Shown piece after piece: positions 11,949 through 52,212 of a stretch of DNA of 64,000 nucleotides. Each line of letters begins with the position of its first letter. Position 1 is the first letter of the stretch. Both the position numbers and the translations under genes were made by a program. Source of the DNA: an uncultured delta proteobacterium (GTDB lineage Bacteria; Myxococcota; Myxococcia; Myxococcales; Myxococcaceae); assembly GCA_963771175.1 (NCBI GenBank), contig CAVYSY010000001.1, positions 96,001 to 160,000 of the forward strand, in the 5' to 3' direction. Under the pieces are notes generated by a model. The model made no database searches. It worked only from the letters and a program-made list of their open reading frames with translations, and had not been told where the DNA came from.

Positions 11949-12715
11949 CCCGCGCAGGAGCACCCAGCGCGCGCATCAGGACTTACCCGAAGCCCCTGCT
12001 CAGGCTGGAAGGGGCGTACCACCCGCCTCACCGAGAGGCGGGTGACGCCCGGACTACGCCCGATGAACAGGGTGTGCATCGGGCCCCCGCCCTTGCCGCG
12101 CGCGGGTGTCTCCACCACCTCGGTGTCGAAGCCCGCCCGCTTCAACCGGTTGGCGAAGGCCTGGTCAGACGAGGCGGACCACACCACCAGCACTCCGCGT
12201 GACTTCAGCGCACGCTGGATGGCGTTCAGCCCGCGCTCACCGTAGAGCCAGCGGTTTGCTTCCTGGGTGAGCGCCTCGGGGCCGTTGTCCACGTCCAGCA
12301 GGATCGCGTCGTACTCGCCCTCCGCCTCGCGGAGCAGGACCCCCACGTCCCGCGCCTCCACCGTCACGCGCGCGTCCTCGAGGGGCCTCCCGGCCAGGGG
12401 CGCGAGCACGCCCTGGTTCCACGCGACCACCGCCGGCACCAGCTCGGAGACCACCACCTCGGCGCTCGGGGGCAGACGATCCAGCGCGGCCCGGACGGTG
12501 TAGCCCAGTCCCAGGCCTCCGATGAGCATTCGCGGCCGCTTCCCGGTGAGCTGGGTGCACGCCACCTCGGCCATCTTCTCCTCGGAGCCATGCTGTCGGC
12601 TGGACATGAGCTCGCGGCCGCTGGCCCGGATGGCGAACTCCTCGCCCCGTTGGTGCAGCACCAACTCGCCTCCGCCCGGAGCGGGCGCTCGATCGATCAC
12701 CTTCCACGGCTTCAT
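11885..12715 (-). CDS. Spermidine synthase-like class I SAM-dependent methyltransferase (true 3' end probably near 12050)
   Basis: ELMSSRQHGSE, LIGGLGLGYT, YDAILLDVDNGP. The ORF tail overlaps the A2M gene, suggesting an indel near the real stop. Confidence 0.85.
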   Translation of the reverse strand: MKPWKVIDRAPAPGGGELVLHQRGEEFAIRASGRELMSSRQHGSEEKMAEVACTQLTGKRPRMLIGGLGLGYTVRAALDRLPPSAEVVVSELVPAVVAWNQGVLAPLAGRPLEDARVTVEARDVGVLLREAEGEYDAILLDVDNGPEALTQEANRWLYGERGLNAIQRALKSRGVLVVWSASSDQAFANRLKRAGFDTEVVETPARGKGGGPMHTLFIGRSPGVTRLSVRRVVRPFQPEQGLRVSPDARAGCSCAGYCLGAIDTFTPSCHVLCSSV

Positions 12716-20721: not shown

Positions 20722-23700
20722 TCACGGCAGCGCCACCAGCAGCGGCGTGAGGAGGTGCCCCGCAACCCCCTGCCCCAGCGAGCCATAGAGGTTGTTGCCC
20801 CAGCTCGACACGCTCCCGCCGGTGTGCACGGCCAGCGAGAAGGTGCCGCCACCCGAGGCGCCCACCCCCCCCGTCAACCCTGGCACCTGCACGGCCGTGG
20901 AGCGCGGACTGGTGGCCCCGTCTCCCAGCTCACCATGGGAGTTGTTGCCGCAGACCCAGGCCGCGCCACTCGAGTCCACCACCAGCGAGTGCAAGGAACC
21001 CGCGGAGATGGAGGTGGCGCCCGTCACCGCCGCCATCTGGACCGGGAGGCCGCGCGGGAAGAGGGTGCCGTCCCCGAGCTGGCCATTGCCATTGAGTCCC
21101 CAGGCCCACACCGTGCCGTCCGCCTTCAGCGCCAGTGAGTGGGCGTAGCCCGCCGCCACGGCCGTGACGCCCGTCAGCCCCGACACCTGCACCGGCGAGG
21201 TGCGCTGGGTGCCGGTACCATCGCCGAGCTGGCCGGCGCTGTTGCTGCCCCACGCCCACACCGTGCCATCTGTCTTCAGCGCCAGCGAGAAGTTGCTTCC
21301 GGCCGCGATGGCCACCGCGCCCGAGAGCACCTGCACCGGGAGCCTCCGCTGGGTGGTGGTGCCGTCCCCGAGCTGGCCATTGCCATTGCTGCCCCAGGCC
21401 CACACCGTGCCGTCGGACTTCAGCGCCAGCGAGTGGTAGCCCGCCGCCGCCACGGCCGTGACGTCCGTCAGTCCCGACACCTGCACCGGAAGAATGAACC
21501 GGGTGCCGGTGCCAACCCCGAGCTGACCCTAGTAGTTGTCTCCCCACGCCCACACCGTGCCGTCCGTCTTCAGCGCCAGCGAGTGGAAGTCCCCCGCCGC
21601 CATGGCCGAGACGCCCGTCAGTCCCGACACCTGCGTGGGCGCGGCCCGGAGGAGGGTGGTGCCGTCCCCGACCTGGCCATTGTCATTGCGGCCCCACGAC
21701 CAGAGCGTGCCGTCGGAGCGCAGGGCCAGGGCATGGTTGGCGCCTGCCCGCACCGCCGCCACTCCCGTCAACCCGGGCACGCCCACGGGGCTCAAGCGAG
21801 GGCCCGTCGTCGCGTCCGCCATCTGGCCGAGCTCGTTGCTGCCCCACGCCCTCGCCGTGCCGTCCTGGAAGAGGGCCACGGAGTGCGCATCGCCCGCGGC
21901 GACGGCGGCTGCGCCCACCAGGCCCGGCACCTGCATCGGCTGGTTGCGCCACGCGGTGTTGCCGAGGCCCAGTTGGCCCAGGTGGTTGTAGCCCCAGGCC
22001 CACACCGTGCCGTCCATCTTCACCGCCAGCGAGTGGCCCGTCCCCGCCGCGAGCGTCTCCACCTCCGACACGCCCAGCACCTGCACCGGCACGAGGCGCG
22101 CGGTGTTGGTGCCGTCCCCGAGCTGGCCATTGCCATTGCCACCCCAGGCCCACACCGTGCCGTCGGACTTCAACGCCAGGGAGTGCTCCTTGCCGGCGGC
22201 GAGGAAGGTGACGTCCGAGGGGAAGCCCTGCACCTGCACCGGCACGAGGCGCAGCGGTGGTGGTGCCATCCCCGAGCTGGCCGGCGTAGTTGGCGCCCCA
22301 CGCCCACACCGTGCCGTCGGACTTCACCGCCAGGGAGTGCCAGGTGCCCGCCGCCACGGCGATGACTCCCGTCAGCCCCGACACCCGCACCGGCGTGGTG
22401 CGCCGGGTGGTGGAGCCATCCCCGAGCTGGCCGGTGCTGTTGGCGCCCCATGCCCACACCGTGCCGTCGGACTTCACCGCCAGCACATGCTCAGCCCCCG
22501 CGGAGAGGGCCACGACGTCGGAGAGCCCCTGCACCTTCACCGGCAGGGTGCGCGCGGTGGTGGTGCCATCGCCGAGCTGGCCCTGGCTGTTGTCGCCCCA
22601 CGCCCACACCTCGCCAGCGCAGGTGAGCGCCAGGGAGGAGGAGACGTTGGCGGCGAGGGACCGGGTGCACGTGGGCACCTGGACGCTCACCGGGGCCATC
22701 CGCAGCAGCTGCGTCCCATCTCCCGAGCTGGCCGAAGCTGTTGGCGCCCCAGGCCCACACCGAGTCATCGGCGCGCTGGACGAGGACGTGGTTGTGTCCC
22801 GTGGCCAGGGCCACGCGCACCTGCGTCAGGCCCATGGACGGTAGCTGGGCCTGCACGGGGAAGGGAAACGAGTTCGTGGCACCGTTGACGAGCTGGCCAT
22901 CGGTGTTGTCCCCCCACGTCCACACGGTTCCATCCGTGCGCAGGGCGAAGGACATCCGGGAGCCGGCCGCGATGGCCGCGACCTGGGACATCTCCGGCAT
23001 CAGCTCCGGCCCGGACATGGCCAGGGTGTTGCTCCCGAGACCGAGCTGCCCCTGGACGTTGCGTCCCCAGACCCAGAGCAGGCCGTCGGAGCGCCGGGCC
23101 AGCACGTGGTTGGCGCGGACAGAGAGGGCGGTGACACCCGAGACGCCCGGGACCTGCACCGGGCTCAGGCGCGAGGCGGTGGAGGTGGTATCGCCGAGCT
23201 GGTACTGGGAGTTCTCCCCCCAGCCCCACACCGTGCCGTCCGACTTCAGCGCCAGCGAGAAGCTGCCTCCAGCCGCGATGGCCACCACGCCCGAGAGTCC
23301 CGGCACCGGCCCCGCAGTGGCGCGGGTGGAGGTGGTGCCATCGCCGAGCTGCCCGTAGTCGTTGTTGCCCCAGGCCCACACCGTGCCGTCCGACTTCAGG
23401 GCCAGCGAGTGGTAGGTGCCACCCGCCACGGCCACCGCGCCGGTCACCCCCTGCACCTGCACCGCGGGGGTGCGAGCAGTGAAGGCGATCGTACCCGTGC
23501 CGATCTGCCCGTTGTTGTCCAACCCCCACGCCCACACCGTGCCATCGGTCTTCACGGCCAGCGAGTGGTAGTTGCCCACGGCGAGGGCCGAGACACTCGT
23601 GAGGCCCGGCACCTGGATGGGCGTGTTGTGCTGGGTGGTGGAACCATCACCGAGCTGGCCGTAGCCGTTGTGACCCCAGGCCCACAGCGTGCCATCCGAC

Positions 23701-25094
23701 TTCAGCGCCAGCGAATGATAGGTGCTTCCGGCGAGACGCTGGACGGAGGACAGCCCCGACACGAGCACCGGGAGGCTGCGCTGCGTGGTGGTGCCATCAC
23801 CGAGCTGACCGTAGGCGTTGTTCCCCCACGCCCACACCGAGCCATCCTGGTGCAGGGCGAGACCGAACAGGTCACCGGCGCCAATGTCCTGGATCTGGGA
23901 GAGGCCCAGCGCCTGGGCGGCAAAGGGACGAAAGCTCGACATGCCATTGCCGAGCTGGCCCGAGTTGTTGAGGCCCCAGCCCCGGATGGTGCCGTCACCG
24001 AGCGCGGCCAGCGCGAAGGAGCCACCACAGGCGATGCCGTGGACTCCCGTGAGGTTGGACACCTGGACCGGGGTGTTGCGCGCGGTGAAGGTGCCATCCC
24101 CGAGCTGGTTCATGGAGTTGTTGCCCCAACCCCACACCGTGCCGTCCTGGCGCAGGGCGAGGGAGAAATAAGTGCCACTGGCGAGCCCCACGACGCCCGT
24201 GAGGCCGGACACCTGCACCGGCGTGAGGGACGAAGCCGTGGCGCCATCGCCGAGCTGAGCATAGGTGTTGTCACCCCAGGCCCACACGGTGCCGTCGGAC
24301 TTCAGCGCCACGCTGAAGGAGCCGCCCCCGGCGATGGCCACGATGCCCGTGAGCCCGGACACCTGGACCGGGGTGTTGCGCGCGGTGGCGGTGCCATCCC
24401 CGAGCTGGCCGGCGCCATTGTTGCCCCAGGCCCACACGGTGCCGTCCTGCTTCAGGGCCAGGGAGTGGTAGTCACCGGCGGCGATGGCCTTCACGTTCGA
24501 CAGCCCCTGTACCTGCACCGGCGTGGAGCGCGACACATTGGTGCCATCGGCGAGCTGCCCGGAGCCGTTGCCGCCCCAACCCCACACCGTGCCATCGGAC
24601 TTCAGCGCCAGCGAGTGAATGTTGCCCGCGGCGATCGCCGTCACGCCCGACAGCCCGGAGACCACCGCCGGAGTGGAGTGCGCGGTGACAGTGCCGTCCC
24701 CGAGCTGACCATCCCCATTGCCGCCCCAGGCCCACACGGTGCCGTCCTGCTTCAGGGCCAGGGAGTGGCTGTTGCCGGCCGCGACCGCCCACACCTGGGA
24801 GAGGCCCTGCAGCTCCACCGGAACGAGGCGCTGGGTGGTGGTTCCATCGCCGAGCTGGCCCTGGGTGTTGGTTCCCGAGGCCCACACGCCACCGGTGGGC
24901 GACACGTACAGCGAGTGCCCCAGCCCCCCGGCCAGACGGCGCGACGACACCATGGAGCCCATGAGGGCCCGGACCTCCCGGGCTGGAGCCTCCGGAGCCG
25001 AAGCCTCCTGGCTGCCTCTCTCCGCTTCACATCCCGCCAGCGTGATGATCCAGAGCGCCAGCAGACACCGCATGACGCGAATTCCCCTGCTCAT
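20722..25094 (-). CDS. Giant RCC1/BLIP-II repeat lipoprotein (~1450 aa reconstructed); frameshifts near 22720 and 22250, in-frame TAG at 21529-21531
   Basis: Lipoprotein signal ([12 protein letters not shown]) followed by more than 25 repeats of [25 protein letters not shown]. Confidence 0.88.
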
Positions 25095-25173
25095 GTGAAC
25101 AACCCCTCCCATGAAAAAGGGGGCGAACCTAGCACGGGCAGTCACAGCCAAGACGCACAAGCGCTTGTTCCCG

Positions 25174-41367: not shown

Positions 41368-42579
41368 GTGATTCACGAAGCGGAATTGTCTCCCAAGCCG
41401 AGCCCCGCTCTGTGGTTGGACGTGAGCGCCGTGGGGGACTTGTCGAAGCTGGCGGCCATGCGGGGCGCCTGGAACGCGCTGCTCGACGCGAGCAACGCGG
41501 GGCCCTTCAACGCGTGGGAGTGGCTGTACCCGTGGTGCCGGCGCATCGGGGCGGACCGGACGCCCTTCGTGTTGCAGGCGAAGGACCGGAGCGGCGAGCT
41601 GGTGGGGCTGATGCCGCTGGGCTTCGAGTACCAGTGGGTGCTTGGGCGTCCCATCCGGCGCCTGGCGTTCCTGGGCGAGACGCACGTGGGCAGCGACTAC
41701 CTGGACGTGGTCGCGCGGCGCGAGTGCGAGGAGGAGGTGACGCACGCCTTCGCCGGAGCCCTGTGGGAGCTGAGGGACCAGTGGGACGTACTGGACCTGA
41801 CGGACCTGCGCGAGGACTCGCTGTCGGTGCGGGTGCTGCGGGAGACCTTCGAGAAGAACCGGGCGGATTTCCGGATGTCGACGCGGTACGTGTGCCCGTA
41901 CGAGTCGCTGCCCAAGGGCGAGTCCTTCGATGACTTCCTGCGGCGCACGAGCCGGCGGGACAACTTCCTGCGCCGGAAGAAGTGGCTGGAGAAGCAGGAG
42001 GGCTACCGCATCGAGAAGACGGAGGCGCCGGGCGCGCTGGCGGGGCCGCTGACGGACTTCTTCCGGCTGCACGCGATGCGGTGGGAGTCGGACGGGGGCT
42101 CGCAGGGCATCAAGGGCCGGGGCGTCGAGGCCTTCCACCGGGATGCCACGCAACTGCTCGCCGAGCGAGGCCGGCTGCGCCTCTACACGATGAAGGTGGG
42201 GGGCCAGGCGGTGGCCTCGGTGTACGGCATCCTGCATCGGGACTCGTTCATCTACTTCCAGTCCGGCTATGACCCGGCCTGGCGCAACCGCAGCGTGGGG
42301 CTGGTGCTGGTGGGCGAGACGTTCCGCGACGCCCTCGAGGCCGGGCTCACCGAGTACGACTTCCTCCGGGGCACCGAGTCCTACAAGTCCGACTGGACGA
42401 CGCAGCAGCGGCGCACGGTGTCCCTGCGGGTGCTCTCGCCCGGCGGGGGAGGGGAGTGGCTCGTCCGGCGCGAGGCGGCGATGCGGCGGGTTCGCGAGGT
42501 GGCCCGGCGAGTGCTGCCGCGGAATGCGGTGGAGCGGGTGCGCCGGTGGCGGCGCGAGCTCGCCGCGGTGCGCGGATAG
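41368..42579 (+). CDS. exoI: GNAT (CelD/BcsL-like) acetyltransferase
   Basis: WNALLD...PFNAWEW, SDYLD, YFQSGYDP...SVGLVL, YDFLRGTESYK. Confidence 0.85.
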   Translation: MIHEAELSPKPSPALWLDVSAVGDLSKLAAMRGAWNALLDASNAGPFNAWEWLYPWCRRIGADRTPFVLQAKDRSGELVGLMPLGFEYQWVLGRPIRRLAFLGETHVGSDYLDVVARRECEEEVTHAFAGALWELRDQWDVLDLTDLREDSLSVRVLRETFEKNRADFRMSTRYVCPYESLPKGESFDDFLRRTSRRDNFLRRKKWLEKQEGYRIEKTEAPGALAGPLTDFFRLHAMRWESDGGSQGIKGRGVEAFHRDATQLLAERGRLRLYTMKVGGQAVASVYGILHRDSFIYFQSGYDPAWRNRSVGLVLVGETFRDALEAGLTEYDFLRGTESYKSDWTTQQRRTVSLRVLSPGGGGEWLVRREAAMRRVREVARRVLPRNAVERVRRWRRELAAVRG

Positions 42580-42612
42580 GAGGCGGGGAGGGCGCCCCGC
42601 GTCAGGCCGGAT

Positions 42613-45600
42613 TCACTGCTGGCCGGCGCGGGACAGCACCCCGCGCCGCATGCGTGTCTGCGCCAGTCGCGCGAAGAGCAGCAGCTTCCGCTCCGCGGCG
42701 TACTTCTCCAGCACCTGGAGCTGCTCCTGGGCCGCCTTGGCGTGGCCCGCTTGCGCCTCCACCTCCGCGAGCGCGAGCCGCGCGTCACACTCGGCCAGCA
42801 CGCTGCCCAACTGCCCGGCTTCCGCCACCGTGGCCTGGAGCTGAATGTTGGCGTCCGCGTCCTGCTCGGCCGAGGCCACGAGGGCTGACGTGACCGCCCA
42901 GGCCAATTTCACCAGGGCGTTCTGGTTCGCCCTCGCGAGCGGTTCCGCCCGCTCGCACGCGGCCCGCGCGTCCGCGAGGCGCCCCTGCGCCAGTCCCACC
43001 CGCGCCAGCAGGAGGGCCGCCTCGGCCTCTCCGTCCCGCACCTTCAGCGTCTTGAAGGTCTCCTCCGCCTCTCGCAGAAGCCGTGTGGCCTCTTCCGCAC
43101 GCCCTTCTTCCAGCGCGAGCCGCCCGAGCGCGATCTGCGCTAGCGCCAGCTCGCTCCGCCCGCCCGCCTGCTTGCGGATCCGCACCGCCTCCTCGAGGAG
43201 GCCGCGGGCACGGACGAGCTCATCCGACAGCATCGCCACGTTCCCGGTGGACACCAGATTGTAGGCGATCATCCGCTGGTCCCCGATGGCCTGGGCGGAC
43301 TCGGTGCTCTCCGCGAAGTGCTTCTGCGCGATCGCCAGGTCCCCGGTCTCCAGGTAGAGGGTGCCGAGGATCCACTGGCCCGCGTGCATGCTGTAGCGGT
43401 ACTCCGTCTCCCGGCTCAGGCGAATGCCCTCGACGGCCAGCTCCTTTCCCTTCTGGAACGCCCCCTGGTGGTGGTGGATGACGGCGAGATTGACGAGCGC
43501 CCCGGCCTCCACGCGGCGGTTGCCGAGCTCGTGAGCGATCCCCACGGACTCCTCGAACAGTGCCTTGGCCCCCGCCAGATCTCCTTGCATCAACAGGCAG
43601 TCCGCGAAGCCGTGGAGTCCGGTGGCCACGCCCTGCCGGTAGCCGAGCTCCCGCCAGATGCGCACGGCCTCGCCGAACAGCCGCTTGGCCTCCTCGTAGT
43701 CCCCCGCGCCGTGGGCGATGATGGCCATCTGCTTGAGCGTCTTGGCCTCGGCGTTCCGGTCCCCGGCGGCGGTGAAGATGCGGCGGGCCTCCTCGCAGAT
43801 AGCGAGGGCCTCCTCGGGGGGCTTGCCCAGACGCAGCAGCGCGTGTCCCTTCACCGAGAGGGCCTGCGCCACCAGCAGTCGCGCGCCTTGCTCCGTGCCC
43901 TCCTTCGCCGCCCGACCCGCCGCCTCCAGCGCGCCCTTGTAGTCGGACGTGGCGTCCATCACCTCGGCCTGGGCGAGGTGGAGCCGGCCCCGTTCCGAAG
44001 CCGAGGCGGGGAGCTGCTGGAGCTCCTCCAGCACACCGAGCGCGTCCCGGCCATGCCCACCGGAGAGCTGCGCGGAGGCCAGCTTCAGGCCGTAGTCGAG
44101 GTTGTCCGGATAGGTCTTGTAGAGGGTGTCGTAGATGTCGATCGCCTTGTCCCACTCCTTGCCGAACTCGCGCAGGCGTCCGTCCACCAGGAGGCGATCC
44201 GCGCGGTTCAGGGTGCCGGCCAGCGCGAGGGCCTTCTGTGCCTCCTCCAGCGCGCGGGTGTCATAGCCGAGCGTGGACCAGGCCTCCGCCAGGGCGGAGT
44301 GGGCCAGGGCGTACTGGGGATCCGCCTCCACGGCCTGCGTGAGCCGCTCCTGGGCCAGGAGCGTGTCATAGCTGCGGAGGTGGGAGAGCCCCTCGGCGTA
44401 GTACCGCAGCGCGTCCGCGTTGGCCGGCAGCGAGGCTCGCGCGTCCGGGCTGTTGGAGGTGGCGTCTTCGGCGCCGAGACGTCCACGAAGGCGCGCGCCC
44501 ATCCGGGAGATGAGCTTGAGCACATCCTCCATCATATCGGTCTCCGTGAGGGTGGTGAGGGTGTCACCAGTCGCGGTGTCCTGGAGCCGCACCACCAGTC
44601 GGAGCTGCCCGCCCGAGGAGCCCGGGACCGCCAGGTACGAGCCCAGCACGACGTAGTCCGTGCCGAGGTTCGCGTGGAGCCTTGCCAGGGTGTCCCTGGA
44701 GAGCCCGTCGCTGTCCTTCAGGGCCAGCTCCTGCTTGAGGCGGATGACGTTCTCGCCGGGGATGGTCCGGAGATCCTCCACGGCCGCCAGCTCCGCGAGC
44801 AGCATCTCGGCGAGCGCGGGGGACAGCCAGGCCACGTCCGGGTTCCCCGAGAGGTTCTTGAAGCCGAGCACCGCCACGACCCGGCGGGATCGGCTCTCTC
44901 CCCGAGGTGCCCGGCCGCCAACCAGCAGCCGGAGACCGGGACACGACACCACACCGGTGGCGCCCGCGAGCAGGAGTGCCCCCGCGGTGAGGAGGACGGT
45001 CCTCCGCCGCACCCGTGACGGCGCGAACCCCGGGGCGCGCGCGCGTCGCACCTTGTGGCCATCTCCGGGCGGCGGCGACAGGGGCGCGAAGCCCGGTATG
45101 CCTACCTCACAAATCTCGGTCGGTTCCTCCACTCCGGCGAAGACGTATGGCCCGTGGACCACCCACTCGGGGGCGCGCTCGGAATGGCTGGTGCCCACGA
45201 AGGCCCGGCGAGCCAGGTCGAAGGCGGCGCGCGTCATCAGCGTCTGTCGGGCGATCGCCAGTGACATGGTGCGGGCCGCCACCGGCTTGGCCAGTCCCTC
45301 GACCTCCACGGGCTTGGCTCCCCGTGCCACCGCGGCCGGTGGATTCTCGTGGAGGAACACCTCGCCCAGGTGGATGCCCGCCCGTGCCGCCAGCGGCACA
45401 CCCAGCTCCACGCCCAACGCGGCCAACGCCTGGTGGTAGGCGAGCGCGTAGCGGGTCGCATCCACCGGCCGGTCGAAGAGGAGGAGGAAGCCGTCGGTCT
45501 TGTCGATCTCCTGGCCCCCGTGCGCGCGGAGCAGGTCGCGGGCAAGCCGGTCGTGACGGTTGAAGAGCTGCGCGGCGCGGGTATCGCCCAGCGTCTCCAC

Positions 45601-46440
45601 CATTCGGGTGCTCTCGACGAGATCCGTCATCAGCAGGGTGCGGATGGCGATGCTCGGCTGGGCGGCAACGGTCAGCGCCCGGCTCACCTGGCGGGCGCTG
45701 GCGAAGCGGGCGTGCGGGTCGCGATCGAGACAGCAGAGGATGGCCTCGCGCCATCCCGGGTCCATCCCCGCGAGCCGGGGGAGCAGGGCCCCGTCGAGCA
45801 CCTCCGGGGAGGGCCGCTCGCCCGTCACCATCTCCAGGAGAACGGCGCCGAGTGCCCAGAGGTCGGAGCGGGTCGTCGCCGGTGCGCCCTCGCGCTGCTC
45901 GGGGGCGGGGTGGGGCAGCTCGGTCGCGGAGGGTTCGCGGCCCAGCTCGAAACCCATCACCAGGGCGCGGAGTCCGGCCCCACCGGGCACCAGCACCACG
46001 CGGGAGCTCGAGAGCGCCCGGTGGACGAGCCCCGCCTCGTGGGCCGCCGCCAGTCCTTCGACGAGCTGGTTGGCCAGCGCCAGCGCCTCCGGCCCCATCA
46101 GCCGTCCCCGGTGACGCAGGTGCTGCTCGAGCGTCTCGCCCTCCAGGAACTCCGTCACGAGGAAGGTGGACTCGGTGCCGGACGCGTCACGGTCGCGGAC
46201 GAGATCCAGCACCCGGCTGACGTTGGCATGTGACACGCCGCGGGCCTGGTTGAACTCGCGTCGCAGCCGCGTCATGGCTTCCGCGGAGGCGGCCACTTCC
46301 GGGCGCATGCGAGTGAGCATGACGGGCTGCTCGAGCGTGAGGTCGAGCGCCTCGTGGACATCCTCCCAGCCGGGACGGGCGATGCTCCGCCGCAGCAGGT
46401 AGCGCTGGGCAATGAGCTGCTCGTCCACCTTAGAAGTCAT
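42613..46440 (-). CDS. Fusion of pseudokinase, class III nucleotide cyclase, TM, TolB-N-like domain and TPR array
   Basis: Kinase fold with degenerate motifs (HRALSSSRV, MGFEL, SDLWALG); cyclase TLLMTDLVES...DKTDGFLLLF...RAGIHLGEV...GLAKPVAAR; TM TVLLTAGALLLAGATG; VAVLGFKNLSG; many TPRs. Confidence 0.85.
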   Translation of the reverse strand: MTSKVDEQLIAQRYLLRRSIARPGWEDVHEALDLTLEQPVMLTRMRPEVAASAEAMTRLRREFNQARGVSHANVSRVLDLVRDRDASGTESTFLVTEFLEGETLEQHLRHRGRLMGPEALALANQLVEGLAAAHEAGLVHRALSSSRVVLVPGGAGLRALVMGFELGREPSATELPHPAPEQREGAPATTRSDLWALGAVLLEMVTGERPSPEVLDGALLPRLAGMDPGWREAILCCLDRDPHARFASARQVSRALTVAAQPSIAIRTLLMTDLVESTRMVETLGDTRAAQLFNRHDRLARDLLRAHGGQEIDKTDGFLLLFDRPVDATRYALAYHQALAALGVELGVPLAARAGIHLGEVFLHENPPAAVARGAKPVEVEGLAKPVAARTMSLAIARQTLMTRAAFDLARRAFVGTSHSERAPEWVVHGPYVFAGVEEPTEICEVGIPGFAPLSPPPGDGHKVRRARAPGFAPSRVRRRTVLLTAGALLLAGATGVVSCPGLRLLVGGRAPRGESRSRRVVAVLGFKNLSGNPDVAWLSPALAEMLLAELAAVEDLRTIPGENVIRLKQELALKDSDGLSRDTLARLHANLGTDYVVLGSYLAVPGSSGGQLRLVVRLQDTATGDTLTTLTETDMMEDVLKLISRMGARLRGRLGAEDATSNSPDARASLPANADALRYYAEGLSHLRSYDTLLAQERLTQAVEADPQYALAHSALAEAWSTLGYDTRALEEAQKALALAGTLNRADRLLVDGRLREFGKEWDKAIDIYDTLYKTYPDNLDYGLKLASAQLSGGHGRDALGVLEELQQLPASASERGRLHLAQAEVMDATSDYKGALEAAGRAAKEGTEQGARLLVAQALSVKGHALLRLGKPPEEALAICEEARRIFTAAGDRNAEAKTLKQMAIIAHGAGDYEEAKRLFGEAVRIWRELGYRQGVATGLHGFADCLLMQGDLAGAKALFEESVGIAHELGNRRVEAGALVNLAVIHHHQGAFQKGKELAVEGIRLSRETEYRYSMHAGQWILGTLYLETGDLAIAQKHFAESTESAQAIGDQRMIAYNLVSTGNVAMLSDELVRARGLLEEAVRIRKQAGGRSELALAQIALGRLALEEGRAEEATRLLREAEETFKTLKVRDGEAEAALLLARVGLAQGRLADARAACERAEPLARANQNALVKLAWAVTSALVASAEQDADANIQLQATVAEAGQLGSVLAECDARLALAEVEAQAGHAKAAQEQLQVLEKYAAERKLLLFARLAQTRMRRGVLSRAGQQ

Positions 46441-46582
46441 TCATCCCGTCCGGAAACCAGAGGCGCCGGATTCTGCCACATGCCCGGAGTCGGCACAGGA
46501 CGTATCCGATGACGGTTGGCCCATATCCACGAAGCGGTCTTGCTTGTTGCCTCCTCCCCTCGGGACTACATTCGCGCACCCA

Positions 46583-48451
46583 ATGAGGATAGCTCTCGTC
46601 GTGATGCCGCTCGCGGCGGCGGATCGCCCGAGCTTGGCGGTGGGGCTGCTGCAAGCTGCGCTGAAGGCCCGGGGCTTCGAGTGCCACGCCAAATACTTCA
46701 ACGTCCTGCTCTGGAAGATGTTGGGCCAGGAGGCGTACGGCGGGCTCGCCCAGCGCGCGTCGATGACGTGCCTGGGGGGTGAGTGGGCGTTCTCGCAAGC
46801 CTACTGGGGCACGCGCTTTTCCCACTGGGAGTCCTTCTCGCGCGAGGTTCTCGAGCATCCCGTCTGGGGCGCGAGCTCCGAGGAGCGCGAGTCCATCTGG
46901 CGGCTGAAGGAGCTGGCCCCCGCCTTCTTGCGTCTGGCCTTCGAGTCCTGTGACTGGGGCCAGTACGATCTCGTGGGCTTCACCAGCACGTTCGAGCAGA
47001 CGATGCCGAGTCTGTGTCTTGCCCGGATGATCCGCGAGCGCTACCCGCGGGTGCGGCTGGTGATGGGAGGCGCCAACTTCGAGGGCCGGATGGGGCGGCC
47101 GTACCTGGAGCACTTCGACTTCCTGGACTACGTGTCGACGGGGGAGGCGGACGACTCGTTCCCGCGCCTGTGCGAGAACCTCCGAGCGGGCCGGCGGGAG
47201 GTGCCGCCGGGCTTTCTCCATCGCGAGGGGGGCGAGCTCCGGGACTCACCGAGGGAGCGGGCCACGGGGCCCACCGCTCTCGACGCGCTGCCGACGCCGG
47301 ATTTCGAGGACTACTTCCGGGTGGCGAGTGCCAGCACGCCCGGGGGCCAATCGCTGGTGAACTGGCTGCCGGTGGAGGCTTCGCGGGGATGCTGGTGGGG
47401 CGAGCGCTCCCACTGCACCTTCTGTGGCCTGAACGGCGAGACGATGGCCTTCCGGAAGAAGAGCTGGCGCCGGGTAGTGGACGAGTCGGAGGAGCTGGTC
47501 CGGCGTCACGGCGTGGGCGCGCTCCAGTTCGCGGACAACATCCTGGCGATGAGCTACTTCGAGGAGCTGCTCCCCTTCTGGGCGAAGCAGCCGGAGGGCC
47601 CGTACAAGTTCTTCGAGATCAAATCCAACCTGAAGCGCCGCCAGGTGGGCCTGCTCCGGGAGGCGAAGGTCACGAGGGTGCAGGCCGGGGTGGAGAGCCT
47701 CCTGGATGGGACGCTCAAGCTGATGCGCAAGGGGGTGACCGGCGCGCAGAACGTGGCGCTCCTCCGCTGGTGTACGGAGCTCGGCATCCACCCCTCGTGG
47801 AACCTGCTCTACGGCTTCCCGGGGGAGGACCTGGCCGGGTACGCCGAGCAGCGCGCGCTGATGGAGAAGCTCGTCCACCTCGCGCCGCCCGTGGCCTGTG
47901 CCCCCATTCGCATGGATCGCTTCAGCCCCAACTTCATGAGCTGGCGTGAGCACGGCTTCGCCCGGATGGAGCCCATGCCCGCGTACCGGCATGTGTTCCC
48001 GTTCCCGGAGGACACGCTCCGCGAGCTGGCCTACTTCTTCCAGTACGAGCATTCGCGGTTCGGGCAGGCGTTGGAGCTGGGTTCCGGGCTGGAGGCGTTC
48101 CGACAGTCCTGGGTGGAGCGGGCCGGGCGCGGCGAGAGCGGGGAGCTGGCGGTGAAGCCCCATTGGCAGGGGGGCTATGTCCTGGTGGACACCCGTTTCA
48201 CGCATCCACGCTCCGCGGTCCGGTTGGACGAGGACACGCTGGCGCTGTTGCTCGCGTGTGATGCGCCCACCTCTCAGGAGGCGGCGCTGAAGAGCGCGGT
48301 CCAGGCCCGGTCGGGCAGGGCGGCCGAGCTCTCGGCCAGGCTGACGGAGCTTCTCGCGCAGAACGTGATCGCGCGGGTGGGGTCTCTCATGGTCACATTG
48401 GCGCTGTTGCCAGAAGGGCTGTCGCTGCAGCCGCTTCGTCGTGCAACCTAG
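46583..48451 (+). CDS. Cobalamin-binding radical SAM enzyme, RiPP-maturation C-methyltransferase type (TIGR03975-like)
   Basis: MPLAAADRPSLAVGLL, VGFTSTFEQ and MGGANFEG (B12-binding domain); EASRGCWWGERSHCTFCGLNG (Cx7Cx2C); DNIL, FEIKSNL, QAGVES, WNLLYGFPGE, DRFSP. Confidence 0.9.
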   Translation: MRIALVVMPLAAADRPSLAVGLLQAALKARGFECHAKYFNVLLWKMLGQEAYGGLAQRASMTCLGGEWAFSQAYWGTRFSHWESFSREVLEHPVWGASSEERESIWRLKELAPAFLRLAFESCDWGQYDLVGFTSTFEQTMPSLCLARMIRERYPRVRLVMGGANFEGRMGRPYLEHFDFLDYVSTGEADDSFPRLCENLRAGRREVPPGFLHREGGELRDSPRERATGPTALDALPTPDFEDYFRVASASTPGGQSLVNWLPVEASRGCWWGERSHCTFCGLNGETMAFRKKSWRRVVDESEELVRRHGVGALQFADNILAMSYFEELLPFWAKQPEGPYKFFEIKSNLKRRQVGLLREAKVTRVQAGVESLLDGTLKLMRKGVTGAQNVALLRWCTELGIHPSWNLLYGFPGEDLAGYAEQRALMEKLVHLAPPVACAPIRMDRFSPNFMSWREHGFARMEPMPAYRHVFPFPEDTLRELAYFFQYEHSRFGQALELGSGLEAFRQSWVERAGRGESGELAVKPHWQGGYVLVDTRFTHPRSAVRLDEDTLALLLACDAPTSQEAALKSAVQARSGRAAELSARLTELLAQNVIARVGSLMVTLALLPEGLSLQPLRRAT

Positions 48452-48465
48452 GAGGGGAACAACGC

Positions 48466-48796
48466 ATGTCGAATCTCATCAGGTATCTGCTCACCGTGGA
48501 TTCCACGACGGGAGCAACGGTGAAGGTGGAGCGGTTGGGAGAGGCGGGCGAGCTCACGGAGGTTCCCGTCGGAGTCGATCCCCAGTCCACAGGGGATGGT
48601 CACCCCGTCGTCACCGCAGTCCGTGGTGGTCAACATCTACATGGGCGGGCCCCAGCCCACGGTGACAACCGGCCCGGCCCATCCGTCGCAGAAGGGCGGA
48701 GCCACGGTCCGGAGCGGCTCTCCTTCCCTTTCCGATGCCGAGCCGCCGCCGCCGGACATCATCCCGGGCGGTGGTTCGCACCGCGAGGGTAGCTAG
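48466..48796 (+). CDS. Small orphan protein (~110 aa), candidate RiPP precursor; probable frameshift near 48570
   Basis: GGAGG RBS right after the rSAM stop. N-part MSNLIRYLLTVDSTTGATVKVERLGEAGELTEVP; codon bias then continues in frame 48596-48796 (SPQSVVVNIYMGGPQP...PPPPDIIPGGGSHREGS). Confidence 0.6.
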
Positions 48797-48832
48797 GGGC
48801 ATCGCGCGGCGGTGGTGGGGAAGGAGGGCGGT

Positions 48833-49777
48833 CTACTTCCTTCCCAGCTCGGAGCGGAGCTGCTGGATGGCCATGAGCAGCGGCGGCGGCTGCATGCTGG
48901 CCGGCACCTCCACCGCGAAGCGCTCGAACTTCTCCAGCGCGCTCGCCTTGTCGCCCCGGCGCACCGCGAGCGCGCCCACGAACAGCAGCGCCTCCTGGGC
49001 GTCCGGGTACGTGTCCACCAGCTTCATCAGCTCCTGCTCCGCGCCGGTCTCGTCGCCGCGCACGGCCCGCAGCACGCCCTTGTGGACCCGCAGCTCCACA
49101 TGGAAGGGATCCACCGCCAGCCCGCGCAGCGTGACGCGCTCGGCGTCCTCGTACATCTGCTGCCGGATGAGCTCGTGGCTCAGCAGGGATGCGGCATCCA
49201 GGTCCGACGGATTGGCCTTCACGCGCTCCCACGCCTCGGCCATCTCCTGGTCCATCTGCGGCTCGCCCTGCTGCTGCGCGTTCGCCGCCATGCCCGGAGG
49301 CACCCGGCCGGTCGCCGAGTCTTCCTCGCCGCGCGGACGCTGCTCGGACACCAGCAGGTAGCCCAGGAAGCCGAAGAACAGCACGATGGCCGCGCCCCAC
49401 AGCGCGCCCTGGAGCTGGGGCGAGAGGGCGCCCTGGGACACGGGCGCCGACCGCGGCGCGGACGCCGTGTCTCCGCCGCCCTGCTTCTTCAGGTGCTCGT
49501 CCTTGGCGCGCAGCGCCGCCGCGGCCTCCAGCTCCAGCCGCGTGCGCTCGGCCTCGTACCGCTCCGTCGGGAGCGAGTGCTTGTCCGCCGCCAGCTCCTT
49601 GAGCTGCTCGATGAGGGACTGGTAGCGCCGCTCCAGGTCCTCGAGCGCACCGTCACGTGGCGCCTGCGCGCTCGCGGCCTTGCTGCGGCTCACGAAGAGG
49701 AAGAACGCCGCGGTGACGAAGCCCACCGCGAGCACGATGATGCCAGGCAGCCAGTTGGTGGTGGTCGAAGGGTTCAT
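48833..49777 (-). CDS. ccmI: CcmI/CycH-like TPR protein (cytochrome c maturation)
   Basis: Two TMs flanking a leucine-zipper loop (QLKELAAD...YEAERTRLE), then TPRs; coupled to ccmH. Confidence 0.7.
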   Translation of the reverse strand: MNPSTTTNWLPGIIVLAVGFVTAAFFLFVSRSKAASAQAPRDGALEDLERRYQSLIEQLKELAADKHSLPTERYEAERTRLELEAAAALRAKDEHLKKQGGGDTASAPRSAPVSQGALSPQLQGALWGAAIVLFFGFLGYLLVSEQRPRGEEDSATGRVPPGMAANAQQQGEPQMDQEMAEAWERVKANPSDLDAASLLSHELIRQQMYEDAERVTLRGLAVDPFHVELRVHKGVLRAVRGDETGAEQELMKLVDTYPDAQEALLFVGALAVRRGDKASALEKFERFAVEVPASMQPPPLLMAIQQLRSELGRK

Positions 49778-50391: not shown

Positions 50392-50808
50392 CTAGGAGGC
50401 GGCGGACTCGTGCTGCCCCCGCCCGTGCCGCATCTGCCGCAGGCGCAGCAGGCCGGTGGCCATGAGGCCCAGCAGGCGGAACTCGGCCGGCTCCAGCTTC
50501 TTCACGGTGCGGACCAGCCGGCGGATTTCGGCGGGCTCCTCGGTGGGTCGGGGCGGGGCTTCCTTGGCCCAGAAGTTCTCCTGGGCGGGCGTGAGCCCCA
50601 GCAGCACGTCCGAGGGGATGCGCAGGGTCTCGCACAGCTTCCGGAGCGTGGGGACGCTGGGCAGCATGCCGCCGCGCTCCAGCCTGCCGTACACCTCGGT
50701 GGCGAGCCCCACCCGCTCGGCCACGTCCTCCTGGGTGAGATTGGCTCGGACTCGCGCGGCTCTTGCCGCTGTACCGATGGTCGCTGCCAGTCCTCGTGGG
50801 AGAGCCAT
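50392..50808 (-). CDS. XRE-family HTH transcriptional regulator
   Basis: ARVRANLTQEDVAERVGLATEVYGRLERGGMLPSVPTLRKLCETL. Confidence 0.92.
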   Translation of the reverse strand: MALPRGLAATIGTAARAARVRANLTQEDVAERVGLATEVYGRLERGGMLPSVPTLRKLCETLRIPSDVLLGLTPAQENFWAKEAPPRPTEEPAEIRRLVRTVKKLEPAEFRLLGLMATGLLRLRQMRHGRGQHESAAS

Positions 50809-50851
50809 ATGCCGTGCAGTCCTGGGTGGTGGGGGGGGCGCCGGGGTGACG

Positions 50852-50923
50852 TGACTTTAAAGATAACCGGAATAATGGTGACTTCAAGAGTCATGTGTGA
50901 GGAAGATATGACTCCGGAGGTCA
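50852..50923. promoter_or_regulatory. Three TGACT-N6-(G/A)T(C/A)A palindromic operator-like boxes between the XRE and kinase genes
   Basis: TGACTTTAAAGATAA (50852-50866), TGACTTCAAGAGTCA (50879-50893) and TGACTCCGGAGGTCA (50909-50923) in an AT-richer intergenic region. Confidence 0.6.
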
Positions 50924-51051
50924 GTGTTCGGACATTGGCCCGCCTCCAGCCTCGTCATCCTTGTTGTCCCGTCATCCTTCTTGGTCGTTCGTGAAGCGCA
51001 TGTTCACCTTTCGAGTCGTCTCGCCGACATCTCGGCGAAGGAGCTGCCCGC

Positions 51052-52212
51052 ATGTCGCGCCGGTCATCCGCTGACACCTCCCTACCCGGTTCCCCTTCCG
51101 TGGTCCTCGATGCCGGGTTGGCGTCGTACGAGCTCGTCCGGACGTTGGGACAGGGCCACCATGGCGAGCTGCTGCTGGCCCGCCAGCGCTACCACCATGG
51201 GCTCGGGGGTCTCACCCTCCTCAAGCGGCTCAACAAGGTGGCGCGGCAGCTCGACTACCAGCGGCTGGTGGAGGAGGCGCGGCTGGGGGGGCAGCTCCAG
51301 CACCCCAACATCGCCTCCGTGCAGCTCATGTGCGGTACCGCGGAGGAGCCCGTCCTCCTCATCGCCTATGTCGAGGGGGACCTGCTCGGTGACCTGATGC
51401 GTCGGGCGGCCGGGATGGACCTGTCCCTCTCGGAGGCCTTTGCCTGCCATGTGACCGCGGAGGTCGCGGACGCGCTGCACTACGCGCACGCGCTCGTCGA
51501 CGAGAGGGGCCGGTCCCTGGGCATCGTCCACCGGGATGTGACGCCCCAGAGCATCCTCCTCGGTCGCCAGGGCGAGGTGAAGCTGATGGACTTCGGGGGG
51601 GCCTGGTCCCGCCTGGAGGGGCGCATGTCCACGGAGGGGGACACCGACATGGTCCCCCTGGCGTACAGCTCTCCCGAGCGGGTCTCGATGGATCCGCTCG
51701 ACGGGCGCTCGGACCTGTTCTCCCTGGGGCTCGTCTTCCTGCGGCTCCTCACCGGCCGGCACCTCTTCGACGCCGACGCCCGTTACGAGGCCGAGCTGCG
51801 TGCCCGTCAGCTCCGGGCGCGCGGGGACTTCCCCGGGGCCAGCCGGGTGCCGGGGCTCGAGGAGTTGGGCCCCCCTCGCACCACCGACCTGATGCGGCGC
51901 ATCCGCCTCCTGAGCACGCGGCAGGTGGAGGAGGCCACGCGCTCGTTGCCAGAGGGGCTGCGCCCCGTCCTCCACCGGGTGCTGGCGCCGAAGCGGGAGG
52001 ACCGTTACCCAACAGGGGCGGAGCTGAGCCAGGCCCTCCGCGACTACCTGTGGGCATCCGGCCAGCGGTATGGGCGGATGGAGCTGGCGGCGGAGGTGTC
52101 CGCCCTGCACGAGGCCGCCCTGCGGGACGGGGAGGGGGAGCCCTCCGGCGACTCGAAACGGGAGGGGGCGGCGTCTCGGGGACGCCGTAAGGGACCTGTC
52201 AGGGAGTCCTGA
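51052..52212 (+). CDS. Cytoplasmic Ser/Thr protein kinase
   Basis: LGQGHHG, LLKRL, EEARLG, HPNIA, HRDVTPQSIL, DFG, YSSPE, RSDLFSLG. Confidence 0.88.
   Translation: MSRRSSADTSLPGSPSVVLDAGLASYELVRTLGQGHHGELLLARQRYHHGLGGLTLLKRLNKVARQLDYQRLVEEARLGGQLQHPNIASVQLMCGTAEEPVLLIAYVEGDLLGDLMRRAAGMDLSLSEAFACHVTAEVADALHYAHALVDERGRSLGIVHRDVTPQSILLGRQGEVKLMDFGGAWSRLEGRMSTEGDTDMVPLAYSSPERVSMDPLDGRSDLFSLGLVFLRLLTGRHLFDADARYEAELRARQLRARGDFPGASRVPGLEELGPPRTTDLMRRIRLLSTRQVEEATRSLPEGLRPVLHRVLAPKREDRYPTGAELSQALRDYLWASGQRYGRMELAAEVSALHEAALRDGEGEPSGDSKREGAASRGRRKGPVRES

Follow-up and report, generated by a model that had tools for sequence, protein, structure and literature searches.

A candidate minimal peptide C-methylation locus with a linked membrane pseudokinase-TPR protein in a Myxococcaceae genome

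We analyzed a 64,000-nucleotide (nt) stretch of the genome of an uncultured delta proteobacterium assigned to the Myxococcaceae (NCBI GenBank assembly GCA_963771175.1, contig CAVYSY010000001.1, positions 96,001 to 160,000 of the forward strand). This whole stretch is referred to below as the window, and positions are those of the window. Three genes, confirmed within 42613..48796, are the subject of this work; they encode a 1275-residue membrane protein (P0001), a 622-residue radical S-adenosylmethionine (SAM) enzyme predicted to bind cobalamin (B12), and a small protein. The main result is that a B12-radical SAM gene of a family linked to peptides that are made ribosomally and then modified post-translationally (RiPPs) is coupled to a small gene whose conserved family has no name, and that this combination is found in two phyla. 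We propose, with a probability somewhat better than even (about 0.55), that the genes constitute a minimal RiPP-type peptide C-methylation locus with a linked membrane (pseudo)kinase-tetratricopeptide repeat (TPR) partner. The original prediction, made from the letters of the DNA, had already described the three genes, the sizes of the two large proteins, the Cx7Cx2C motif of the enzyme and a 142-bp spacer, and these coordinates were confirmed. C-methylation of unactivated carbons by B12-radical SAM enzymes is rare and useful chemistry for which few peptide systems have been characterized, and the locus would be a very small system consisting of one enzyme and one precursor.

According to the explanation that we favor, the small gene would encode the precursor, which would be about 109 residues long if the frame break described below is read through, and which would comprise a leader of ~35 residues adopting a beta-meander, a stretch of beta-branched hydrophobic residues (VVVNIYMGG) and a disordered Gly/Pro-rich tail containing IIPGG. 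The beta-meander leader would dock the precursor on the radical SAM enzyme, and the latter would C-methylate, in a leader-dependent manner, unactivated side-chain carbons of Ile, Val and possibly Pro in the hydrophobic motifs. These proposed targets are based in part on what is reported for PoyC, an enzyme with a 'unique Cx7Cx2C' motif that Cbeta-methylates Ile and Val (PMC11285071), and for MpcB, a CX7CX2C enzyme that methylates Val/Ile/Thr/Pro-rich cores and is leader-dependent (PMC10849626). P0001 would most likely serve as a sensor or a regulator, or else as a scaffold whose TolB-like/TPR part, predicted to be extracytoplasmic, binds peptides, and would not be an active kinase. The product may remain a modified small protein, or may depend on factors that are not linked to the locus.

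The radical SAM enzyme and the small gene

The longest plus-strand open reading frame (ORF) encompassing the radical SAM gene starts at 46412 and specifies 679 residues. Because every homologue aligns from residue 58 of this ORF, we assigned the start of the gene to the ATG at 46583, which results in a protein of 622 residues (46583..48451, plus strand) and a divergent intergenic spacer of 142 bp (46441..46582) between this start and that of the P0001 gene. The protein scored 579.9 bits against TIGR03975 ('RiPP maturation radical SAM C-methyltransferase'; cut-off 281.85) over the complete profile (positions 1-606 of 606), while the next best NCBIfam family scored 51 bits. In agreement with the original prediction, these scores indicate that the enzyme, as judged by its sequence, belongs to the known family TIGR03975. 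A regular-expression search of the translation showed that the Cx7Cx2C motif at residues 270-281 (47390..47425, plus strand) is the sole Cys triad of the protein, and the three Cys residues are invariant in an alignment of 40 sequences. The family profile built from these 40 sequences matched the solved B12-radical SAM enzymes TokK (E 4.9e-16), OxsB, CysS and TsrM, and its alignment to the first three covered profile positions 99-319. The Pfam B12-binding model reached 20.2 bits, which is under its gathering score of 32.1. Comparison of residues 481-622 with the sequences of the Protein Data Bank (PDB) gave only chance-level matches, the top one (E 0.001) to an ATP synthase delta subunit; our guess is that the C-terminal part of the enzyme contains a leader-binding domain resembling the RiPP recognition element. 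The family is large: 3013 representatives of clusters matched at E <= 1e-30, of which only four are full-length at 47-52% identity.

The G+C content over the radical SAM and small genes (46000-48999) is 0.676-0.69 as compared to 0.70-0.736 in the flanks, and the G+C content at third codon positions (GC3) of the radical SAM gene is 0.88 versus 0.90-0.95 in the neighboring genes. These lower values are a weak hint of a foreign origin.

The small ORF starts 14 nt after the stop codon of the radical SAM gene and is preceded by an AGGAGG ribosome-binding site (48450..48455, plus strand, read directly) that overlaps this stop codon. The small gene is probably translationally coupled to the radical SAM gene. 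As it stands, the ORF runs from 48466 to 48792 (108 codons), and relatives match only its first ~35-45 residues. Codons 1-35 (48466..48570, plus strand) specify a conserved leader that shares 77-89% identity with the homologues P0005-P0007, and the match of P0003 with P0005 (E 4.7e-10 against 5.8 billion database sequences) is beyond chance. The continuation of the similarity is found in the +1 frame (48572..48796, plus strand; 74 codons plus the stop codon that ends at 48796). In BLASTP, this second frame showed 56% identity to P0007 (E 4e-14), and 46% identity to P0005 in a match that begins exactly at P0005 residue 36; family alignments gave the same assignment. Since the homologues match frame 1 up to residue 35, ending at 48570, and then match the +1 frame, one extra base at 48571 (plus strand) interrupts the gene. 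GC3 also switches to the +1 frame at the break. The small ORF of the original prediction is thus split over two frames, and the end given there, 48796, corresponds to the stop codon of the second. The extra base is either a sequencing or assembly error, or the mark of a recently inactivated gene; as sequenced, the gene would specify the leader fused to an out-of-frame tail. It is the +1-frame part that carries the Val/Ile motif VVVNIYMGG and the Gly/Pro-rich tail with IIPGG. We also considered whether a peptide consisting of the core alone could start independently at the ATG at 48596. This candidate was rejected: the similarity runs upstream of it in the same frame to 48572, and no spaced ribosome-binding site was seen in front of it by eye. 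A practical consequence of the frameshift is that annotation will miss or miscall the small gene.

The small protein, which had been taken for an orphan, turned out to be a member of a conserved family. Out of 2053 candidates, a profile search retrieved 15 proteins with E <= 0.1. Rows of the query itself account for three of them, and P0159 is nearly identical to the fourth query row, an ORF from locus L003 (a Thermoanaerobaculia record). A myxobacterial-type group comprises ten of the 15, and its two named members come from Melittangium boletus and Archangium sp. Their leader contains RYLLTVDS, seven of the ten show a clear central motif (L/V)VINI(Y/F)MGG, from which P0005, P0006 and P0158 diverge, and their Gly/Pro-rich tail is variable and contains IIPGGP, CIPGGP or GPGGP repeats. 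The second group, which we call acidobacterial after L003, consists of five proteins of 72-73 residues plus the L003 ORF; it is characterized by a leader with RFLLVVDAATG, by conservation of an LVFIS stretch, and by GPII(R/M) at the C terminus with Gly or Ala-Gly after it. Both groups end in II(P/R)G-type tails, and their profiles aligned with each other (hhalign) over 28 N-terminal columns with a probability of 82% and an E value of 1e-5. No Pfam or NCBIfam model matched six intact homologues at E <= 10, apart from a chance match to PsbX (E 0.14), and the two small ORFs of the window matched no family in these databases at E <= 0.01 and no leader model of the NHLP/Nif11 type (e.g. TIGR03793).

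AlphaFold2, run with the family alignment, predicted that P0007 contains a three-stranded beta-meander at residues 6-33 (pLDDT confidence 85-93) and is disordered afterwards; the L003 small protein was predicted to have the same topology with lower confidence. A fold search with the P0007 model against the PDB returned 0 matches at E <= 0.001, and a search of the ESM Atlas with P0162 returned no usable match. The features by which a RiPP locus is recognized were found here in two phyla: beside the gene for a modifying enzyme lies a small gene whose product has a conserved leader and a C-terminal half that is predicted to be disordered. The division of the small protein into leader and core is one that we infer, and the precursor family appears to be undescribed.

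The membrane protein P0001

The gene for P0001 occupies 42613..46440 on the minus strand, as supported by its ORF and translation, Pfam and NCBIfam matches, and orthologues. Full-length orthologues with 46-50% identity are present in Archangium, Vitiosangium and Melittangium, and the closest relative, a partial protein labelled Archangium sp., is 90% identical. The window therefore probably belongs to the Archangiaceae and not to Myxococcus.

Residues 1-262 (45655..46440, minus strand) constitute a pseudokinase domain. The Pfam Pkinase model matched with 55.6 bits against a threshold of 31.7. Active kinases are recognized by a Gly-loop, VAIK, HRD..K..N and DFG. In P0001 the Gly-loop is degenerate, the Lys of VAIK is replaced by Thr, HRD by HRA and DFG by GFE, and an alignment with the active kinases of L003 and of another acidobacterial locus, L015, showed that the Lys and Asn of the catalytic loop are replaced by Ser and Arg, respectively. 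As all catalytic motifs are altered, we conclude that P0001 is a pseudokinase. The orthologues from Archangiaceae are kinase-degenerate too, and the more distant P0189 keeps the motifs. A role like that of the LanL kinase was considered and is excluded by the loss of the catalytic residues.

Residues 263-457 (45070..45654, minus strand) form a divergent class III cyclase-homology domain, which was identified by sequence matches in the PDB to the cyclase-homology domain of Rv1900c/LipJ (1ybt, E 4e-11) and to Ma1120 (E about 1e-10). The original prediction had set this domain apart from canonical adenylate cyclases, and this view was borne out: the PF00211 model found nothing, either in the whole protein at E <= 0.01 or in the isolated domain at E <= 10. 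With respect to the residue set of canonical class III cyclases, both metal-binding Asp residues and the Arg are kept, and the position of the transition-state Asn is occupied by Pro. This site lies within RGAKPxEVEGLAKPxAAR (including GLAKPVAAR), a motif that is conserved with few substitutions in 22 relatives chosen from the top 120 matches, 16 with and 6 without a kinase domain.

A single transmembrane helix is predicted at residues 482-500 (44941..44997, minus strand), where the highest 19-residue Kyte-Doolittle window scored 1.99 and the next best scored 1.57 or less. The remainder of the protein, residues 501-1275 (42616..44940, minus strand), is predicted to be an extracytoplasmic TolB-like region followed by TPRs; this assignment is based on Pfam matches to TPR_12 and TPR_MalT and on relatives, whose Joint Genome Institute (JGI) names include 'TolB-like protein', and the topology is deduced.

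The best NCBIfam family for P0001 was TIGR04510 (300.7 bits, E 2.7e-89), which aligned residues 266-904 to profile positions 5-624 of 814. The resemblance to TIGR04510 suggested originally therefore holds in that this family is the best match, but the score is below the cut-off of 400 and does not make P0001 a member. All 12 relatives tested behaved likewise, with 250.5-319.1 bits, each under 400. The TIGR03903 model reached 66.7 bits against a cut-off of 705.75, and matched the kinase part only.

Related loci and alternative explanations

A scan of species-representative genomes matched 612 stretches; 594 of these are relatives, and the best 80 of the 594 yielded 77 loci. Archangium and Melittangium loci are missing from this set, which is not evidence that the enzyme is absent there. 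In a tree of 78 radical SAM enzymes (that of the window plus those of the 77 loci), the window enzyme groups with that of L001, a metagenome-assembled Myxococcaceae genome (59% identity), with a Shimodaira-Hasegawa-like approximate likelihood ratio test (SH-aLRT) support of 98, and these two form a clade with L003 (50%) and L002 (Angelobacter, 46%) with a support of 100.

The co-location of the genes that the original prediction called for recurs once at the gene level, in L003, and at the contig level in two Archangiaceae contigs described below, which are independent support for linkage. In L003, the 3' end of the homologous radical SAM gene is overlapped by the small ORF (11883-12098), and the pair is flanked by two P0001-like genes, one divergent and upstream (803 residues) and one convergent and downstream (1167 residues). 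The encoded partners share 38-41% identity with the C-terminal part of P0001 (best E 3e-119) and 38-42% with its kinase part; both kinases look active and neither protein has a cyclase domain. Over the transmembrane, TolB-like and TPR part, the partners from L003 and L015 are 38-41% identical to P0001 across 665-751 residues. Comparison at the level of sequence thus indicates that the core of P0001 that is conserved across phyla is (pseudo)kinase, transmembrane helix, TolB-like region and TPR, and not the cyclase domain. Within 6 kb of the radical SAM genes of the 77 loci, strong matches to the C-terminal part of P0001 were present in two (L003 and L015) and weak ones in three more, YcaO was encoded in nine, and no cyclase-domain match was detected.

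Other relatives illustrate the settings in which the enzyme occurs. L001 (5833-11848) is a thiazole/oxazole-modified microcin (TOMM) locus that encodes a fused cyclodehydratase with a leader-binding domain, a SagB dehydrogenase, and a 131-residue ORF that is weakly NHLP-leader-like (TIGR03793, 37.2 bits, E 2e-9, under the cut-off of 50.9). Two further unknown proteins, one of them lipoprotein-like, are encoded after the TOMM genes. In L002 (8811-11860) a gene for an FxsB/YhhB-like, cyclophane-type radical SAM/SPASM protein (226.6 bits against a cut-off of 370) ends 6 nt before the B12-radical SAM gene. L002 may therefore be a RiPP locus with two radical SAM enzymes; no precursor was identified in it. 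In L015 (6663-21581), whose enzyme falls in a distant clade, the P0001-like kinase-TPR gene overlaps the start of the radical SAM gene by 4 nt, and at least four more tandem Ser/Thr kinase-TPR paralogues follow a downstream 2-hydroxyacid dehydrogenase gene.

Several observations weigh against the three-gene locus that we propose. The small-protein family lies beside the radical SAM gene in only two of 78 sources (the window and L003). Both L001, the closest relative of the enzyme in the set, and L002 lack the small protein and a P0001-like gene. In the Archangiaceae, sequence records suggest co-occurrence on contigs and not adjacency: homologues of the small protein and of P0001 lie on apparently shared contigs of 96107 bp (P0169/P0172, Archangium sp.) and 223759 bp (P0160/P0182), where sharing is deduced from equal size and does not imply adjacency, and the presence of P0162 and P0186 on the 9910441-bp Melittangium boletus chromosome shows only that both occur in one genome. 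Kinase genes are not rare, with kinase matches within 6 kb of the radical SAM gene in 11 of the 77 loci, and the host phyla are kinase-rich. DUF5825 was not found in three actinobacterial TIGR03975-like loci (L066, L009 and L071), so these provide no bridge to MpcB. The precursor gene is broken in this genome. Finally, a scan of neighboring ORFs within about 10 kb detected no YcaO, lanthipeptide synthetase, protease or exporter, as had been predicted, and L003 has no protease or exporter nearby either; release and export of the peptide are therefore unexplained.

An alternative explanation is that the radical SAM and small genes are a RiPP pair and that P0001 is merely a neighbor in a kinase-rich genome. 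The frequency of kinase matches and the lack of a P0001-like gene in L001 and L002, which belong to the same enzyme clade, fit with it, as does the abundance of P0001-like proteins (1605 matches at E <= 1e-20). L015 fits too: it combines a P0001-like gene with a distant enzyme and has no small protein, as expected for independent chance adjacency in Acidobacteriota. Yet in L003, which belongs to another phylum, two close relatives of P0001 directly flank the pair, and their kinase part belongs to one subfamily with that of P0001 (296 residues aligned with 41.5% identity in one match). Moreover, homologues of the small protein and of P0001 share what appear to be single contigs of 96 and 224 kb out of genomes of apparently 12-13 Mb, and just 142 bp separates the divergent starts in the window. 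We regard chance neighborhood as a tenable but rather unlikely explanation.

It is less probable still, and in our view unlikely, that the locus is a decaying relic without function in this strain. The frameshift at 48571, the lost catalytic residues of the kinase domain and the missing canonical Asn of the cyclase-homology domain could all be seen as signs of decay. However, the radical SAM and P0001 frames are full length with a GC3 of 0.88-0.90, like the neighboring genes; all Archangiaceae orthologues have the pseudokinase state and the cyclase motif in common, so that these are ancestral and not products of recent decay; and the single-base indel may be an assembly error.

As one of two possibilities, the original prediction had further suggested that the TPR ectodomain of P0001 senses a methylated peptide and that this is coupled to cyclic-nucleotide output. 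In such a model the peptide would be exported, and the cyclase domain would respond with synthesis of cAMP or cGMP. The single transmembrane helix between the cyclase-homology domain and the TolB-like/TPR part provides a compatible topology, and the related NCBIfam family is named 'putative peptide modification system cyclase'. Also, the metal-binding Asp pair and the Arg are retained, and the strong conservation of the domain among relatives indicates that it is under selection. Cyclic-nucleotide output is nevertheless unsupported, because of all parts of the partnership this domain is conserved least (neither of the two L003 partners has it, and none of the 77 loci gave a match to it), and because it lacks the transition-state Asn, which is Pro in the 22 aligned relatives. 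In addition, PF00211 is not detected, no exporter or leader protease is encoded nearby, and the small protein has no signal peptide that is obvious by eye. We consider this model very unlikely.

Equally doubtful is a role of the small protein as an accessory factor (a chaperone, regulator or adaptor) with the enzyme methylating another protein or a metabolite: the first 35 residues are predicted to form an independent fold, conservation among the acidobacterial members extends over all 72-73 residues (mean column identity 85%), unlike in hypervariable cores, and B12-radical SAM enzymes also act on proteins and small molecules (NCBIfam lists a methyl-coenzyme M reductase glutamine methylase as well as hopanoid and lipid enzymes), but no family other than TIGR03975 (579.9 bits) scored above 51 bits, relatives in the enzyme clade sit in RiPP loci, tight coupling of the small gene to the enzyme gene is seen in two phyla, and the C-terminal half of the small protein, predicted to be disordered and rich in Val/Ile/Pro/Gly, is similar to the kinds of substrate described for PoyC (PMC11285071) and MpcB (PMC10849626).

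Comparison with known systems and genomic surroundings

PoyB and PoyC, of the proteusin (polytheonamide) pathway, are presumably members of TIGR03975. The window enzyme shares with PoyC the Cx7Cx2C motif, which is described as its hallmark (PMC11285071). Candidate Val/Ile targets are present in the small gene, and the related locus L001 combines TOMM genes with a weakly NHLP-like ORF. The window differs in that its candidate precursor lacks an NHLP/Nif11 leader and in that no epimerase, YcaO, dehydratase or N-methyltransferase was found among the ORFs scanned within ~10 kb. The mpc clusters for clavusporin (MpcA, MpcB, the DUF5825 protein MpcC, an S9 peptidase and a major facilitator superfamily (MFS) transporter) are reported from Actinobacteria only (PMC10849626); they resemble the window in having a B12-radical SAM enzyme with CX7CX2C and a developmental bacterium as host. 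In contrast to them, DUF5825, S9 peptidase and MFS transporter genes were not found in the same ~10-kb scan of the window, and the candidate precursor is longer and has a leader predicted to fold as a beta-meander. Other B12-radical SAM C-methylated peptide systems named in PMC11285071 and PMC10849626 are bottromycins and pheganomycin.

P0001 resembles several signalling-type families. TIGR04510 proteins ('putative peptide modification system cyclase') usually occur with an NHLP-related peptide and a SagB-related dehydrogenase. P0001 has in common with them a cyclase-homology domain, a transmembrane helix, a TolB-like region and TPRs, as well as a position beside a candidate modified peptide, and differs from them in its extra N-terminal pseudokinase in addition to its score below the cut-off; furthermore, neither a SagB-related dehydrogenase (TIGR04511) nor an NHLP-type precursor was found among the small ORFs and 14 neighboring ORFs. 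TIGR03903 ('TOMM system kinase/cyclase fusion protein') also combines a kinase, a cyclase-homology domain and a long C-terminal region in about 1270 residues beside a RiPP locus, but only its kinase part matches P0001 and the window lacks TOMM machinery. The acidobacterial Ser/Thr kinases of L003 and L015 are likewise encoded beside a TIGR03975 enzyme and share 27-42% identity in the kinase part and 38-41% in the transmembrane/TolB-like/TPR part; unlike P0001, they keep HRD..K..N and DFG and have no cyclase-homology domain. P0001 would be another cyclase-homology signalling-type protein beside a candidate modified peptide, after TIGR03903 and TIGR04510, and the fact that such proteins recur suggests that they act as regulators or receptors in RiPP biology.

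Literature searches found no publication on TIGR04510 or on a 'peptide modification system cyclase', nothing specific on radical SAM RiPPs of Archangium and nothing relevant on TolB-like, adenylate cyclase or TPR proteins in connection with RiPPs; the matches listed for TIGR03975 included general metagenome surveys of biosynthetic gene clusters. The pairing of the enzyme and small gene with a pseudokinase/TIGR04510-like protein appears to be undescribed. A bolder interpretation, which we consider quite improbable, is that a three-gene module of Myxococcota and Acidobacteriota represents a new RiPP class with a PoyC-like radical SAM enzyme that C-methylates Ile, Val or Pro in a small protein with a beta-meander leader, and a dedicated (pseudo)kinase-TolB-like-TPR receptor that binds the product. 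If this were true, the product, made ribosomally, C-methylated and encoded beside spore-coat exo genes, would serve as an autocrine or developmental signal or as a surface-active factor, and the cyclase-homology domain related to TIGR04510 would provide a non-canonical output or a nucleotide-binding switch.

The three genes are preceded by exo-type polysaccharide genes, the last of which is a GNAT gene at 41368-42579. This upstream set encodes an export protein, a chain-length determinant, a tyrosine kinase, a priming transferase, a YvcK-like protein and two GNAT-type proteins. A gene with TPRs and one of the CcmH/NrfF type follow downstream. We take the flanking genes to be exoA-I and ccmI/H. 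A scan of 42300-49100 for promoters and terminators detected no sigma-70-type promoter or terminator pattern, a result that is uninformative at the G+C content of the window, which is about 70%. Elsewhere in the window, two large ORFs at 7761-11948 (1395 residues) and 22491-25160 (889 residues) have a coding-like GC3 and no NCBIfam match at E <= 1e-10. Beyond the ccmH-like gene, at 50392-52212, an XRE-type helix-turn-helix gene on the minus strand is divergent from a gene for a 386-residue Ser/Thr kinase.

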